Of a stretch of 64,000 bases of DNA, positions 5,468-63,747 are shown piece after piece. How positions within the stretch are numbered: the first letter of the stretch is position 1; every line of letters begins with the position of its first letter. Under the pieces are notes generated by a model. That model was not told the DNA's origin. It did no database searches and saw only the letters and a program-made list of their open reading frames with translations. Origin of the DNA: an uncultured Bdellovibrionales bacterium (GTDB taxonomy: Bacteria; Patescibacteriota; Minisyncoccia; Moranbacterales; UBA1568); NCBI GenBank assembly GCA_964543815.1, contig CAZIZG010000002.1, positions 50,111 through 114,110 on the forward strand, read 5' to 3'. Both the position numbers and the translations under genes were made by a program.

Positions 5468-6295
5468 CTATTTCTTGGTGCGACGACGGACGATATACTT
5501 ATTGCTCTGGTTCTTGCGGCTACGGGTCTTCTTGCCAAGTGCCGGCTTACCCCATGGTGTCTTCGGATGCATACCAATCGGCTGACGTCCCTCTCCACCA
5601 CCGTGTGGATGATCCACTGGGTTCATAGCGCTTCCACGAACATGCGGACGACGATTCTTCCAACGGCTACGACCAGCCTTACCGATACGCTCAGCACTAT
5701 GTTCGAAGTTACTCACCTGACCGAGAGTAGCGTAGCATTCTTTGCTCACTAACCGGATTTCACCAGAGGCCAGTTTAATCTGGGCCATCGGACCATCCAA
5801 GGCCATAAGAACCGCCTGAGAACCGGCGCTCCGAACAATCTGACCACCCTTTCCAATCTTCATTTCAATATTACAAATCGTGGTTCCGGCTGGAATATTC
5901 TTGAGAAGCATGCGGTTACCATTCACCACCGGGACACTTTCCCCGGAAACCACCGTCCCACCCTGCTTCATACCGTCTGTCGCGAGAATATAGCGCTTCT
6001 CTCCATCAGCATAGTGTACCAAGGCAATGAGAGCCGAACGATTCGGATCTTTTTCCAAATGAGCTATCTTACCAGGGATATCAAGCTTGTCCTGGCGAAA
6101 ATCAACCAAGCGATAGCGACGCTTGTGACCACCACCCTGGTGACGCACGGAAATCTTTCCACCCGAACGACCAGCCCGCTTCTTGTGCGGAGCAAGCAGG
6201 GACTTTTCTGGTGCCTTATCGGTTATACCGTCAGGCTTAACAATCGACATATTACGTCGACCGGCATGGTTCTTTTTGTAGATCTTGATGGCCAT
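5468..6295 (-). CDS. rplB: 50S ribosomal protein L2
   Basis: 275 aa with L2 hallmarks (…MNPVDHPHGGGEGR…). Confidence 0.95.
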   Translation of the reverse strand: MAIKIYKKNHAGRRNMSIVKPDGITDKAPEKSLLAPHKKRAGRSGGKISVRHQGGGHKRRYRLVDFRQDKLDIPGKIAHLEKDPNRSALIALVHYADGEKRYILATDGMKQGGTVVSGESVPVVNGNRMLLKNIPAGTTICNIEMKIGKGGQIVRSAGSQAVLMALDGPMAQIKLASGEIRLVSKECYATLGQVSNFEHSAERIGKAGRSRWKNRRPHVRGSAMNPVDHPHGGGEGRQPIGMHPKTPWGKPALGKKTRSRKNQSNKYIVRRRTKK

Positions 6296-9836: not shown

Positions 9837-10040
9837 GGCGAGTGAGGATTATTGATAAAATACGTTATTTCCCCTTAGGCAAGCAACCTTTCAAAGTACC
9901 ATCGGGTCGCCCCAGCATGGTGACCTGATTGCCTTGAAGTCCTCACTCTTTTTCTTCCAGAAAAAACCATGCCCGTTCTGACTTCAAGGCTACTTTGAAA
10001 GATTCTTGCCAATGGAAAATCTAAGACTCAGCCTACTTTA

Positions 10041-13356: not shown

Positions 13357-13379
13357 TACTGGGGAACAAAACAGAGTTC

Positions 13380-13435
13380 ACCCTGTGAAATTCCGCCAGA
13401 GGCGAATACTTCGTATCGCGAAGATTTCACAGGGT
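13380..13435. repeat. Palindromic element copy 1: 12-bp perfect inverted repeat ACCCTGTGAAAT…ATTTCACAGGGT with a ~32-nt structured spacer
   Basis: Arms at 13380-13391 and 13424-13435. The right arm contains the TGA stop of the S2P gene. Related copies occur at 25986-26040, 22874-22889 and 14651-14667. Confidence 0.6.
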
Positions 13436-14149
13436 AAACCACAAAAACATCCCTAGAACGGAATTGATAAGGTAACCTATCGGTGCCGAAAAGAAGAATA
13501 TCACGAAAATAAGAAGGAAAAGCCCATACTGCTCGAGCATGAGAATAGTCCGCTCAGAAAGAGGCAGAAGCGTATACAGAATTTTGGATCCATCAAGCGG
13601 TGGAATAGGAAGGAGGTTGAAGCAGGCTAGTACGACATTCCAGAAAATCACCAAAAGAAGAAGTCCGTAGAAAATACTAGGGAACGATCCGGAAAGCGCA
13701 TCAGCCAACAATCTAAAACGCTCCATAAATTCCCCTCGTCCCCCGATAACACCAATAAAGCGACCGAGAATATCTTGTTTCGCCAAAAGGGTCAACGGGA
13801 GAAGATACGCAATAAGTGCGGCGCCAGATGCCAAGAGAAGATTGGAGGCAGGGCCAGCAAGCGCCACCCACGTCGGGCCCCATTTCTGATCTCTTAGGTT
13901 ATATGGGTTGTACGGTACTGGTTTGGCCCACCCAAAAGCAAATCCCGTCGTCACAAAGAGAAGTACCGGGAGCACAATCGAACCAAAGGGATCAATGTGC
14001 TTCATAGGATTCAAATTCAGTCGACCCGCATACTTGGCAGTTAAGTCCCCAAGCCACAAGGCCATCACCCCATGTGACACCTCATGAATAATGACCGAGT
14101 AAATAAGGGTAAGAAGATAAAAGCCGACCAAAACAATTTCGTGTGCCAT
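13427..14149 (-). CDS. Site-2 protease family zinc metallopeptidase (M50), polytopic membrane protein
   Basis: HEVSHG (HExxH) within a TM helix, multiple hydrophobic segments, 240 aa. Confidence 0.8.
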   Translation of the reverse strand: MAHEIVLVGFYLLTLIYSVIIHEVSHGVMALWLGDLTAKYAGRLNLNPMKHIDPFGSIVLPVLLFVTTGFAFGWAKPVPYNPYNLRDQKWGPTWVALAGPASNLLLASGAALIAYLLPLTLLAKQDILGRFIGVIGGRGEFMERFRLLADALSGSFPSIFYGLLLLVIFWNVVLACFNLLPIPPLDGSKILYTLLPLSERTILMLEQYGLFLLIFVIFFFSAPIGYLINSVLGMFLWFTL

Positions 14150-14518: not shown

Positions 14519-14592
14519 TGTCGGGCTGCCGGGAATCGAACCCGGCCTACATCCACCCCATGGACGCGTACTGCCGATATACTACAGCCCGC
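14519..14592 (-). tRNA. tRNA-Pro (anticodon GGG); CCA not encoded
   Basis: The reverse complement folds as a cloverleaf: T-arm CCGGG-TTCGATT-CCCGG, anticodon arm CGTCC-AUGGGGU-GGATG (U33, GGG, G37), D-arm GTAT/GTAC, and a 7-bp acceptor stem CGGGCTG/CAGCCCG. The exact 5' end is uncertain because there is an extra G upstream. Confidence 0.72.
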
Positions 14593-14620: not shown

Positions 14621-14653
14621 AAATGAAAAGAGGCACCAGTTGGGTGGTGCCCC
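14621..14653 (-). terminator. Intrinsic terminator immediately upstream of tRNA-Pro
   Basis: Minus strand reads GGCACCA-cccaac-UGGUGCC followed by UCUUUUCAUUU. This implies a minus-strand transcript ends here. Confidence 0.55.
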
Positions 14654-15200
14654 TGTGTGATGCCGGACGTTGCCGACTAGTGCTGGATGTTCCAGTTGGT
14701 AATTGAGGTGTCGTCGGGATCGAGCACGAAACGCGCCGCGGGTCTCGTGACAAGCGGAGATGTGGAGGCAACTGGGATAGCCACCCCTTCCTTTTTCTCC
14801 TCTTGGTCCTTCAGTGGTAGCTCGCCTTGGCCGAGGTTACCCTCGGAATTTTGATCAGGCATGTTTGCCTCCTACGTGTGGTAGCGCTTCACCACGGTTG
14901 GCCGACGGGAATCGCCTACGTGGTAACAGAGTTCGATCTGAGCCTGTCCGGAGCGCGGACGCTGAGGCGAAGGGATTGCCCCCGAATTCCGCGTGACGCG
15001 GTCAAGGCCAGTGCGTGATGCCATCCCTGGCATCTGAGATTTCTTGTCGGGCACGAATGTGCCTCCTCAGTTTTAAAACAACTCCACCCGCAAACGAAAT
15101 GCGGGAACCACTTTGGAGCGCGTTTGATGAACGTGCCCCGATAGACATCAGGAGTTTGTGGCTCTCTGATACGCAGCATTATACGCCGCTTTTCCTACTT
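14654..15200 (-). other. Unassigned GC-rich non-coding segment; candidate structured RNA or foreign-DNA remnant (not identified)
   Basis: About 550 nt with no credible ORF. It is GC-richer than the flanking DNA and bounded by intrinsic terminators. The minus strand carries several stable hairpins, two with GNRA tetraloops (CCGAGG-GUAA-CCUCGG near 14835-14850; GAUGCCA-GGGA-UGGCAUC near 15015-15032). Confidence 0.25.
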
Positions 15201-22702: not shown

Positions 22703-22873
22703 AGATCTCTGTGGATTAGAAATAGTTTTCGTTAAGTTCTTTCAGTATAGCGCTCCTGGCAACACCTACACAAGTGCCCAAATAAGCAGAAATTATCTGA
22801 AAATTCACTCTATCACAGCAGAATATTGAGTGTCAACCCAATGCAATACTGGCTTTGCCAGTCCGCCTTTGTA

Positions 22874-22889
22874 GCGGAATTACACAGGG
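22874..22889. repeat. Solo arm of the palindromic element (GCGGAATTACACAGGG) in the ftsA-ftsZ spacer
   Basis: Matches the right arm of the copies at 13380-13435 and 25986-26040. No left-arm partner nearby. Confidence 0.45.
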
Positions 22890-22965
22890 CCAATCCCACT
22901 ATTTTTGGTAAATAAAAAACAGAAAAAGGCTTTCTTTAAGAAAATTTACCCATGACTTTCGAGTC

Positions 22966-25926: not shown

Positions 25927-25985
25927 GACCTCCTTTCAAAATGAGCTTTCGCTCTTCTATCGAATCATAGGGCACCTTACGAGAT

Positions 25986-26040
25986 TTACCCTGTGTAATT
26001 CCGCGAAGCGGACCGGCTACGCCGGATTACACAGGGTGAA
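25986..26040. repeat. Palindromic element copy 2: TTACCCTGTGTAATTCCG…CGGATTACACAGGGTGAA with a nested CCGGC-TAC-GCCGG hairpin
   Basis: Arms at 25988-26003 and 26023-26037. The right arm contains the TAA stop of the HIT gene. Lies in the spacer upstream of rpsU. Confidence 0.6.
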
Positions 26041-26377
26041 TATTTTCGCTTAAACGTGCCCCGCCGAGGAGATGAAGGTGCAGATGGTCAATCTCTTGGC
26101 CACCATCCCTCCCTACCCGGATAAGCAGTTTATACCCTTTTTCAGAAATTTTCAAGTCTCGAGCAATATCTCGGGCTACCCGAAACATATTCCCAACTAT
26201 GAGTACGTCCGTATCCTCCAAATGGGCGATACTTTCAATGGGCTTCTTCGGAATAATAAGGATATGGATTGGAGCCATTGGATGAATGTCGCGGAAGGCC
26301 AAGATATCCTCATCTTCATAGAGAATATCAGCAGGAATTTCTTTCCGAATAATTTTAGAAAAGATAGTCTCGGCCAT
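26027..26377 (-). CDS. HIT-family (histidine triad) nucleotide hydrolase
   Basis: HLHLHLLGG histidine-triad motif, 116 aa. Confidence 0.88.
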   Translation of the reverse strand: MAETIFSKIIRKEIPADILYEDEDILAFRDIHPMAPIHILIIPKKPIESIAHLEDTDVLIVGNMFRVARDIARDLKISEKGYKLLIRVGRDGGQEIDHLHLHLLGGARLSENIHPV

Positions 26378-38281: not shown

Positions 38282-41200
38282 CTATGGCGCCACTTCTTTC
38301 CAGTTGTAGTCACAAGAGCGAGTCCCCGGACAATTGATGGTGTTACCACAGCCATCATTAGTAATAACATACTGAGAACCCACGCAGACATTGTCTGTAT
38401 CAGCAGTATGATTGACACAATTATCCGTCGGAACACAAACGTTTGAACATATCGTTCCGTTCCAAAAAAGAGGGATCGCACAGGTAGCACCAACACTTTT
38501 AGTACTGAGTGTTATTCCGTCATGGACGAAAGTAAAGGTATTCCCTCCAGCAGAAACGTGCTTAATTGGTCGGATAACCGTACCCGGGGTAGCTGATGTC
38601 GCTGTACTAAACTCGATACCATCCTGCTGAATTGAGGGAGTCATTGTGAGATTCGAACTCGTCCAAGCAACATAGATATTACACGTTGAAGCACCATTTG
38701 GTATGGTACAAGCCCCATTAGTGAAGTTGGCCGTTGGTACCCCCGCCTCACAAATCCCAAGCGTTGCATTCCATACACCCGCACAAGTCCCACGAACCGT
38801 GACCATATCGCGCGTGGCAAGAGTATCATCACGCAAACGTACCGAATTATTCCCAAATGTTATGGGAAATGCTACGGCCGTACCAGACAGAGCAGTTGAA
38901 TACGTAATATTGCGAGTCCAATTATAGACACTGGCACTCGCCAAATTCTGTGTCCACCAGGTGAAATTGACATCGCACGTTGATTGACCCACGGGAATCG
39001 TACAGCTCGTTGGCCAAGCCGAAAGCATCCCCCCACTTGCCTGGCAAATACCCTGATTCCAGATGAGCGCACCGAAACAAACCGCTGTCATAGTAGCCTG
39101 TTCAAACAATCCTCCCTGATCTCGCAATGTAACCGTGTGAGAGCCGTAATCCAAAGCAACCGGCTGGTTACTCGCTGCTGGATTGTTACTCGTATAGCCC
39201 GTTCCAGAAACTGAGAGTTCGATTGGCGGCACCGCATCGCCGGCAGTTGTCCAGCTCACTCGCCCAGTACAGGTACTATTACCCGCCAAAATAGTACAAC
39301 CTTGAGCCTGAGTAATACCACTCGTTGTTCCCATTCGAAAAGTCACACTGATAGTACCATTAGAAGTAATATTATTAAACGTATACGAACCCGGAGCGCC
39401 AATATTAACCGGGCCGCTCCCCGTATTTACGATAACAGTATCAATAACGTATGGGTAATTTTCTGTAATAGTAAAAGTGCGACTGCTTCCGGCAGGAATA
39501 CCACTGATACTGCCTGAGGGAGAAATGAACCCACCTGAACCAGCCGTAGCAGTAATGGTATAGGTCGTGGGAATAGGTGCGGTGCACGTACCACTATTGG
39601 TACCGACCGGACTACCAGCACCAAGACAGGTCCACTGATAATTAAGCGCTGTGTCAGCCGGTGAATTCGAGTACGTTCCGGAAACACACGTTTCTGCGGT
39701 CACGCCACAGACTCCGTTTATGGTCGTGACACAAGCATTCGGAGCACTCGTATTAACCGCTCCTGACCAACTTGATGACCCGCTTCCATTGGTCGCCCGC
39801 ACGGTATAGCTGTGCGCCGATCCCGCCATGAGACCCGTGTGACTGAAGCTTGAAGTAGCCCCATCATAAATCTGAGTTCCACCGTCGCGGAGCTGATAAC
39901 TGGTAGCGCCGGAAACACTGTTCCAACCAATGTTTATAGTACCACTGCCGCAGGCAGCTGGTGATGCATTAAGCGATGTAGGTGTGCCAGGAATGCCGGC
40001 GGCACAAGCATTCGGAGCATTTGCGTTAACTACCCCCGACCAAGCCGACGATCCGCTCCCGTTCGTTGCTCGTACCGTATAACTATGGGAGGATCCATCA
40101 GTCAGTCCCGTGTGATTAAAGCTCGGAGTGGCCCCATCATAAATCTGAGTTCCACCGTCGCGGAGCTGATAACTGGTAGCGCCGGAAACACTGTTCCAAC
40201 CAATGTTTATAGTACCACTGCCGCAAGCTCCGGGATTTGCTGAAAGCAACGAGGGTGTACCAGGGACACTCACTGCCTTCGCTTCCGTACACGAGGGGGA
40301 ATTAGATCCGCCACCTGAACCCATACAGGTCCAGTTATAGGTAGTAGCGGTATCACCATCCAACCGAGTTGTTCCAGCAACACAATTGTAGTGCGTCGGG
40401 GCACAAACTCCATCTACCCGAGGAGGATTCACGGTGATAGTTGTCGTATCAGTAGCTGTTCCTGCCACATTAGAACAACTGATGGTATAGGTAAATACCC
40501 CGGTCGGTAGACCCGTCAACCTATAATTACTATAGCTCAAGTCACTCCTACTGATACCATTTCCAGAAACCGAGCAACTCGTAGCACTAGTCGAACTCCA
40601 AGTCAGTGCTGCGTTCTCACCCACAGTGATAACGGTACCACTTCCAGCATGTACTACGGAATCCCCTCCCGTTATCACTGAAAATGTTTTTCGCCACCAA
40701 GATTCTTCGACAGACGCGACTGGACCACTTGCTGAAATAGTAGCGGTTGGAGCTACTACTGCTGGATTCACCTGAAGCGTCCGCGTCAATGAGGTAGCCG
40801 ACCCACCGGGGCCCGTACAGGTCACACTCTGTGTGTAGGTCCCAGCGCTCATCGCCGGTGTACTAATTCCAGCATTACTCGTTCCTACATTGCCATTCCA
40901 GATACCTGACCCCGTACAAGAAGTGGCATTCGTTGAGGAGAAAGATATTGATGATGTACTCCCAGCTGTTATAGTAGCGGGATTAAAGGGACTCAGTGTC
41001 ACCGTTGGAGCAGGTGGAGCGGCTATCATAAAATTTAACCGCCCTATATCCATAGACCAGGCCAAATCGGCGCCGGAGCTATTTCTGACGTTGATGACGA
41101 GACGCAACGAAATAAAGTGCCCTCCCGATGACATGCCTCCCGGAATAGCAAATGAGGCATTATAAGGACCAACCACTGTTCCAAAAAATGACATCCCTGA

Positions 41201-63656: not shown

Positions 63657-63699
63657 AATTTTATGTTCGTATTTATTATAGCATATTTTAAAACTATCG

Positions 63700-63727
63700 C
63701 ATCGACTTCTTCAGTCTATGCTATAAT
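63700..63727 (+). promoter_or_regulatory. Extended -10 promoter (TGcTATAAT) for the lamin-tail-domain gene
   Basis: The sequence tatgcTATAATaag lies 20 nt upstream of an AAAGGAA SD and the ATG at 63748. Confidence 0.45.
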
Positions 63728-63747
63728 AAGAACACTAAAAAAAGGAA

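Follow-up and report, generated by a model that had tools for sequence, protein, structure and literature searches.

The stretch of DNA analysed here (the window) comprises 64,000 nucleotides of contig CAZIZG010000002.1 from an uncultured bacterium, a Moranbacteria-like representative of the Patescibacteria, and its genes lie almost exclusively on the minus strand. An initial annotation had drawn attention to a palindromic element with full copies at 13380-13435 and 25986-26040 that share 12-bp arms. We find three copies, designated c1, c2 and c3, and propose that they are probably miniature non-coding forms of an inverted-repeat element which at full length carries the gene of a stand-alone GIY-YIG nuclease. 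According to Pfam, an M50 peptidase gene lies upstream of c1 and the S12 gene downstream, a HIT gene lies upstream of c2, and FtsA and FtsZ flank c3. The 84-aa product encoded after c2 resembles S21 but its Pfam match missed 1e-4. All three copies are situated within minus-strand transcription units. Their parts are listed in Table 1; loci fetched from genomes and metagenomes carry L-numbers in the following, and P0112 and P0081 denote protein-selected groups.

Table 1. Copies of the element in the window, their parts and the genes whose stop codons they include
Feature	Position	Strand	Remarks
c1 with extended stem (GTTCA...TAAAC)	13376-13439		core 13380-13435, spacer between M50 peptidase gene and rpsL
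c1 left arm ACCCTGTGAAAT	13380-13391		arm motif search
c1 inner hairpin A	13392-13406		stem CGCC/GGCG, loop AGA
c1 inner hairpin B	13409-13423		stem CTTCG/CGAAG, loop TATCG
c1 right arm ATTTCACAGGGT	13424-13435		includes TGA stop of M50 gene
M50 (S2P-type) peptidase gene	13427-14149	minus	TGA 13427-13429; Pfam
c3	22836-22890		ftsA-ftsZ spacer; degenerate but complete copy
c3 left arm ACCCAATGCAAT	22836-22847		4 substitutions
c3 inner hairpins	22849-22861 and 22862-22878		
c3 right arm ATTACACAGGGC	22879-22890		intact
c2 with extended stem (ATTTA...TGAAT)	25984-26041		core 25988-26037, between HIT gene and 84-aa S21-like gene
c2 left arm ACCCTGTGTAAT	25988-25999		arm motif search
c2 inner hairpin A	26000-26012		TCCGC-GAA-GCGGA, includes GCGAAGC
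c2 inner hairpin B	26013-26025		CCGGC-TAC-GCCGG
c2 right arm ATTACACAGGGT	26026-26037		includes TAA stop of HIT gene
HIT gene	26027-26377	minus	TAA 26027-26029; Pfam

The copies in the window

Both annotated copies and their common arms were borne out. Allowing at most one mismatch, the arm motif occurs six times in the window compared to 0.5 expected occurrences, and six or more were reached in none of 100 shuffles. When a covariance model trained on unrelated members of the family was run on the 64 kb with filters off, exactly three copies were returned, c2 with 59.3 bits (E 8e-16), c1 with 45.1 bits (E 1.8e-11) and c3 with 28.4 bits (E 2.3e-06); the next match had an E-value of 0.78. What had been described as a solo arm at 22874-22889 is thus the right arm of a complete third copy, and a supposed weaker arm at 14651-14667 is a chance match that adjoins a canonical terminator hairpin (14654-14629). 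With its substituted left arm, c3 looks like a decaying copy. Three other palindromes of the window (9931-9990, 40624-40680 and 63673-63729) consist of perfect 11-13-bp inverted repeats around 31-38 nt and fold better than shuffles as single-stranded DNA (z -3.4 to -5.2). Their arms are unrelated to those of the family and, together with the covariance model, rule them out as members. The sole tRNA of the window, tRNA-Pro(GGG), is encoded at 14520-14591.

In each copy, two short, GC-rich hairpins lie inside an outer stem of 12 bp, extendable to ~16 bp with one mismatch (core CCCTGTG-N-AAT / ATT-N'-CACAGGG), and hardly any junction nucleotides are left, which results in a three-way junction. 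The inner hairpins of c1, c2 and c3 have no sequence in common. The copies fold as readily into an RNA structure as into one of single-stranded DNA. As RNA, c1 and c2 reach -29 to -37 kcal/mol on either strand, and c3 folds on the minus strand only (-27.8 kcal/mol; plus strand -17.5, z -1.0, no better than shuffles). As single-stranded DNA the values are -21.3 kcal/mol for c1 (z -7.3), -22.0 for c2 (z -8.4) and -12.7 for c3 (z -2.6). Hairpin A of c2 includes GCGAAGC, which we take to be a very stable DNA mini-hairpin motif. At the gathering threshold, Rfam 15 gave no match in the whole 64-kb window despite the ribosomal-protein operons located there, and in E-value mode c1 and c2 retrieved only sub-threshold, spurious look-alikes of miRNA hairpins. 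The view that the element had not been described before agrees with our searches, since neither Rfam nor the literature searched, with incomplete coverage, contained such an element.

The copies had also been placed just upstream of promoters. This applies to c1, which is followed by a sigma-70-like site (13356-13327), and another such site overlaps the end of c3 (22836-22807), but the promoter scan called none after c2. The outer end of c3 provides the TTGACA of the promoter-like site upstream of ftsZ (TTGACA-18-TAGAGT with a TG extension, 22807-22836).

A widespread family with a constrained fold

The element is dispersed far beyond the window and its relatives. Scanning one genome per species with the pattern CCCTGTGNAAT-N22-50-ATTNCACAGGG, perfect arms being required, yielded at least 119 family loci, and a metagenome scan at least 120. 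From the information content of the pattern, we estimate that 596 Gb should contain ~16 matches by chance. The pattern had no match in 2.9 million viral contigs and the element is therefore not phage-borne. The 236 distinct elements with common arms carry about ten phylum-level labels; record titles name Bacteroidota (many families), Desulfobacterota and other 'delta' lineages, Cloacimonadota, several groups of Patescibacteria, Chloroflexota, Ignavibacteria, Omnitrophota, Spirochaetales, Marinimicrobia and metagenome-assembled genomes labelled Bdellovibrionales, and Mesohalobacter halotolerans is an isolate among the named records. Genomes harbor multiple copies: near-identical ones occur on different contigs of one metagenome-assembled genome, and a 6.5-kb Bacteroidota contig (L070, 244-6291) contains five. 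Two of these (6183-6234 and 6235-6291) are arranged head to tail and have the variant arms CCCAGTG/CACCGGG. The proposal of a repeat family resembling repetitive extragenic palindromic (REP) sequences or MITEs (miniature inverted-repeat transposable elements) is hence supported by a dispersed, multi-copy, cross-phylum palindrome with a protein-coding full-length relative.

The family repeat reads (R-Y-Y-C-R)-CCCTGTG-N-AAT ... ATT-N'-CACAGGG-(Y-A-R-R) and forms a stem of 12-16 bp. With the flanks defining the orientation of the elements, the sequence is R-Y-Y-C-R at -5 to -1 and Y-A-R-R at +1 to +4, and a C.A mismatch is conserved at -2/+2. This orientation is also the sense orientation of the GIY-YIG open reading frame (ORF) in full-length copies and agrees with the position of purine-rich loops in 28 versus 9 cases. 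Using the order of the hairpins as a marker of polarity ('6-bp hairpin first') was consistent in 14 sequences but agreed with flank polarity in only 16 of 34, and was abandoned. The miniature form typically has 50 nt and two hairpins of 5-6 bp, mostly with C-NNN-G triloops. Complementary bases occupy the variable arm position in 222 of the 236 distinct elements, two flush perfect hairpins could be parsed in 101 compared to 0.5 in shuffles, 77% of the loops are triloops (GAA/TTC and AAA/TTT being the commonest) and 84% of the hairpins are closed by a C-G pair. If 59 distinct 50-nt elements are laid onto a fixed 12+6+5-bp structure, 95.2% of cells pair, in contrast to 35-43% in slid controls, and compensatory changes are found at all 11 inner pairs. 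The fold is consequently under constraint while the inner sequence is free. Arm variants co-vary as well (CCCCGTG/CACGGGG and CCCTGTT/AACAGGG).

Beside the element, only common paralogous families, namely response regulators, ABC and FtsX permeases, histidine kinases and DUF559 (in four loci), recur, and our analysis of neighboring genes revealed no gene family enriched beside the element. Genes for DUF559 (Vsr-like) endonucleases, together with other small multi-copy genes, for example PIN and PemK, are found repeatedly near elements (L094 4682-5089 and three other loci; L248 1651-1995); selfish small genes may have a common neighborhood there. An operator controlling translation and division operons had also been suggested. 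For one bound by a dimeric transcription factor, the conserved inverted repeats would qualify as half-sites, and promoter-like hexamers do lie near c1 and c3. Nevertheless, we consider the probability of such an operator next to negligible. The half-sites are spaced by 22-50 bp, or ~265 bp around the GIY-YIG gene, the inner hairpins are conserved as structure, which is not required of an operator, and the same arms turn up next to unrelated genes of about ten phyla, within genes and in CRISPR repeats. For the window, this removes the idea of a common regulator of ribosomal-protein and division operons.

Relation of the element to transcription was assessed with gene calls of a self-trained codon-usage caller, which recovered 66 of 70 window genes on the minus strand and whose calls largely match the genes that were supplied with the fetched loci. 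Elements in spacers are distributed over co-directional (81), convergent (19) and divergent (16) contexts in ordinary proportions, 18 of the 236 lie inside genes, and their polarity coincides with that of transcription in 20 cases and opposes it in 22. Right arms do include the stop codons of the M50 gene (TGA) and the HIT gene (TAA), as initially annotated, but this is incidental, since just 8 of 159 assessable elements (5%) overlap the stop codon of a gene ending next to them. These proportions also bear on whether the copies act as intrinsic or compound terminators of the upstream genes. Two genes end in a strong hairpin, which would suit this function, and where c1 ends, a small alternative hairpin with TTTGTT behind it overlaps the copy. 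However, a terminator function is highly improbable: no U-tract follows c2 or c3, the terminator scan called none of the three copies yet found canonical terminators nearby and elsewhere in the genome, the family is not enriched at gene 3' ends or in convergent spacers, and termination leaves the conservation of the arm sequence across phyla unexplained.

Related genomes add a view on the age of the copies. L110, L106 and L067 are syntenic with the window at ~70-77% identity; c1 is present at the same site in L067 (5822-5871) and c2 at the same site in L110 (7584-7633). Arms and four to five flanking bases are identical in these orthologous copies, with surrounding spacers that cannot be aligned, and we conclude that the window copies are old and their arms maintained. 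The sequences point to conversion from other copies or to selection as the means of maintenance. Compared with c2, the L110 copy has its interior inverted between flanks of unchanged orientation; the L067 copy is inverted as a whole with respect to c1, the -2/+2 mismatch included. This pattern points to recombination between the arms, which would flip the interior. In L106 a further copy lies between a terminator and the next gene at a place where the window has none.

Could the element be an RNA structure that is selected by the host? It might serve as a processing site for RNase III or another enzyme or as a 3' stabilizer that separates upstream messages from those of rpsL, the rpsU-like gene and ftsZ, its arms being conserved because a host RNA-binding protein reads them. 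The position of the three copies inside minus-strand transcription units, the high stability of their RNA folds and arms whose conservation at orthologous sites far exceeds that of the flanking spacer would agree with this, as would c3, which pairs better on the sense strand by means of G-U pairs. The latter rests on three transitions, though, and by our own estimate from arm composition the wobble pattern is expected by chance in about 1 of 5 cases. Likewise, the excess of G.T over A.C among inner-stem mismatches (23 vs 13) is not significant (binomial p ~0.13, own estimate), and an apparent excess of sense-strand wobbles (21 vs 9) that was obtained with crude longest-ORF calls disappeared with the codon-usage caller (20 vs 22). 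Polarity is random, copies occur in divergent spacers, genes and CRISPR repeats, orthologous copies are flipped relative to genes, triloops rather than tetraloops dominate, no Rfam family matches and the same arms frame a nuclease gene. Overall, a host-selected RNA structure is an unlikely explanation, and an orientation-dependent role of the family in RNA is not supported. As the element is nearly symmetric, an RNA hairpin would form either way; the copies may affect transcripts incidentally, and at individual sites a secondary, exapted role in RNA may have evolved.

Insertion sites and the form with a GIY-YIG gene

Pairs of filled and empty sites demonstrate that the element inserts with a duplication of at most 1 nt. 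It tends to enter the loops of hairpins already present, CRISPR repeats and a single fixed position of four-helix-bundle (PF05635) genes, and R-Y | A-R-R is a provisional target motif. In a CRISPR array on metagenome contig Ga0256914_1098383 (L196, 1-640; repeat ATCTACAAAAGTAGAAATCTTATAGGACTTCTAAG), a 57-nt miniature of identical sequence sits in four of the repeats and three intact repeats represent the empty site; no target duplication is seen. Judging by its repeat, the array is presumably of the Cas12a type, and the insertions might disable crRNA processing. Compared to L094, L216 has an insertion of 54 nt at the start of an epimerase-like gene with no more than 1 nt duplicated. Relative to L032, the element of L060 sits inside the loop of a pre-existing hairpin, and in L191, compared with L105, it sits inside the hairpin loop of another family member. 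Insertion into hairpin loops accounts for the extra outer stems around some copies. A repeated host-sequence family in L155, L108 and L214 has filled and empty members (L155 4749-4807 and 5803-5861) that are compatible with a target duplication of 4 nt or with none. The filled copy at L155 5803 shares only its right flank with this repeat family, which suggests a rearrangement at that element.

Beside the miniatures in the CRISPR array, the L196 contig contains a small ORF that is bracketed by arm variants. Tblastn and inspection revealed the same arm-framed ORF in L229, L182 and L114, which had been found by the pattern like L196. It is also present in L240, L242-L248, L249 and L250, whose contigs had been fetched by protein identity alone. 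The order is left arm, a few bases, ATG, an ORF of ~85 codons, stop, a few bases and right arm: CCCTGTGGAAT-AAA-ATG...TAGT-ATTCCACAGGG in L240, which stems from an isolate of Desulfothermus naphthae, and CCCCGTGAAAT-AGA-ATG...TAGT-ATTTCACGGGG in L242-L248 and L249. L250 has the same left arm as L242-L249, with the right arm ~50 nt past the stop. Over all loci the spacing of arm pairs is bimodal, with one peak at 0-50 nt and a second at ~265 nt. Besides the GIY-YIG carriers, nine loci with arm pairs 200-600 nt apart (at most two mismatches) were inspected and contained no GIY-YIG ORF. In L114 (2101-2412), a miniature is inserted in frame inside the GIY-YIG ORF and adds P-C-G-I-N-R-R-F-N-A-Q-H-Y-S-T-G to the product, which recalls REP sequences reported within genes of REP-associated tyrosine transposases (RAYTs).

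The framed protein is a PF01541 GIY-YIG domain of 85-89 aa that comprises the catalytic domain only and has more than 2500 clusters of close relatives. By phmmer, the UPF0213 proteins 1zg2 (E 3.3e-07) and 1ywl (E 5.6e-05) are the closest proteins of solved structure, and there is a faint match to Slx1. Both structures have been placed in the Slx1 family as a minimal stand-alone GIY-YIG domain (PMC1564403), and Slx1-Slx4 is described as a structure-specific endonuclease acting on branched DNA (PMC8287910, PMC4407285). With the NCBIfam model of group I intron endonucleases, TIGR01453, the framed protein scored 17-23 bits compared to a cut-off of 56.

The gene-carrying form is found repeatedly at one site of genes for PF05635 four-helix-bundle proteins (23S rRNA intervening sequence, IVS), directly after the codons for N-I-A (L240 2359-3128; L242 2323-3000; L249 2323-2978; L250 1326-1915; L182 1580-2050). 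Both halves of the host gene stay open reading frames in every case, and exact removal from CCC to GGG keeps the host frame in the four of these five loci that could be assessed (L182, L240, L242 and L249).

From sequence data we infer that the GIY-YIG nuclease recognizes the branched fold and drives the movement of the element. The single strand or an extruded cruciform of a miniature would fold into a three-way junction, the GIY-YIG protein would recognize this folded or branched form and cut at or near its base, and in doing so it would mobilize the gene that encodes it and also, in trans, the miniatures, either by cut-and-repair or by copying in the manner of homing. Two of the window copies would have landed in the last codons of the upstream genes, where an arm now supplies F-T-L-stop and P-V-stop, respectively, and effects on the transcripts of rpsL, the rpsU-like gene or ftsZ would be a by-product. 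More tentatively, the family could constitute a new class of mobile elements in which an Slx1-like GIY-YIG protein recognizes a branched repeat and moves its own gene together with large numbers of 50-nt miniatures, with no duplication of the target, into hairpin loops, CRISPR repeats and the fixed site of four-helix-bundle genes, among other targets, in at least ten phyla, the Patescibacteria with their reduced genomes among them.

Several observations weigh against the proposal that the window copies are miniatures of a GIY-YIG element. There is no GIY-YIG gene in the 64-kb window. In P0112 and P0081, the co-varying arm pair CCCTGTTAAAT/ATTTAACAGGG is located at the 3' end of the GIY-YIG ORF instead of around it, so that the architecture is not uniform. 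The PF05635 sites cannot be reduced to simple insertion, as the Glu codon of N-I-A-E-G appears altered, and element boundaries vary by 1-3 nt between filled and empty pairs. Because our scans needed perfect arms, the distribution and copy numbers given above are lower bounds from a biased sample. Finally, the long retention of perfect arms at orthologous sites could mean that the host selects for a function.

Comparison with known systems

If the link between the repeat and the nuclease is true, GIY-YIG proteins would join the short list of enzymes that drive small bacterial repeat elements, and a part of the large unexplained family of stand-alone GIY-YIG proteins of ~85 aa would obtain a biological role. 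It would also explain a recurrent structured sequence of 50 nt that annotation pipelines and searches for RNA motifs encounter in Bacteroidota, Desulfobacterota, Cloacimonadota and candidate phyla. By altering the ends of genes, splitting genes and interrupting CRISPR repeats, the element bears on genome annotation and possibly on CRISPR function.

Mobilization by a RAYT, a Y1 HUH transposase, as in REP/REPIN families deserves consideration in view of the common features. Both systems consist of short structured palindromes that are mainly intergenic, have many copies per genome, are sometimes arranged in tandem and are associated with a single nuclease gene framed by the repeats. They also share long-term vertical persistence, the absence of a target duplication and copies inside the nuclease gene, the latter as reported for RAYT subclass 2.4 (PMC6006769), and 'atypical secondary structures' have been reported for the Bacteroidetes RAYT subclass 2.6 (PMC6006769). 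In contrast to REPs, which are lineage-specific and form a single hairpin or a REP doublet, the element described here has an arm sequence common to many phyla and forms a three-way junction. In alignments of 14 and 60 elements with their flanks, the hairpin foot lacked a GTAG/GTGG or CGTC tag, and a regular expression for HUH...Y(I/V)xxNP, which is a weak test, matched none of 1140 ORFs within 3 kb of 121 elements. Since the guide tetranucleotide is absent and the repeatedly framed gene belongs to a different nuclease family, GIY-YIG instead of Y1, we do not assign the element to the REP/RAYT systems and regard its mobilization by a RAYT as very unlikely.

Like MITEs (Correia/NEMIS, ERIC and RPE elements), the non-coding miniatures share terminal inverted repeats with a coding parent, the 11-nt arms framing the ORF in L182, L196, L229, L114, L240 and L242-L250, and they can land in gene 3' ends and contribute codons or stops. 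Unlike MITEs, they show a target duplication of at most 1 nt, their parent encodes PF01541 and not a DDE transposase, and the interior is kept as structure and not as sequence. Lacking target duplication and a DDE parent, the element is not a MITE in the strict sense. Hairpin-based recognition, insertion without duplication and small size are reminiscent of IS200/IS605 elements and their PATE derivatives. However, these are without long terminal inverted repeats, whereas a terminal inverted repeat of 12-16 bp is the defining feature of our element, and they use a Y1 transposase and a fixed tetranucleotide target, neither of which was seen in our motif scan near elements. Integron attC sites, with R''/R' boxes (RYYYAAC/GTTRRRY) in arrays next to intI, were also considered and rejected: the arm sequence differs and the copies are located between housekeeping genes.

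23S rRNA intervening sequences consist of a four-helix-bundle (S23p) ORF within an inverted repeat that forms a long stem; their place is within rRNA helices, from which RNase III removes them. Both systems have a small ORF inside an inverted repeat that forms a long stem, and PF05635 is the preferred host gene here, but the present element resides in ordinary genes and spacers. Homing endonucleases of the GIY-YIG type such as I-TevI and the Seg proteins likewise employ a GIY-YIG catalytic domain in a selfish element, and another similarity is that insertion recurs at a single conserved position in a gene family, which is PF05635 in the present case. The differences are that the ~85-aa protein has no DNA-binding domain, that its gene is framed by inverted repeats and that non-coding miniatures are abundant; Rfam scans of the window and of c1 and c2 matched no intron or ribozyme model.

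By sequence, the framed nuclease is closest to the Slx1/UPF0213 (YhbQ-type) proteins. These are treated as housekeeping repair factors, with no link to repeat elements in the literature searched. Slx1 cleaves branched DNA (PMC8287910, PMC4407285), and the three-way junction or cruciform of the element would, by analogy, be the kind of branched substrate on which such an enzyme acts.

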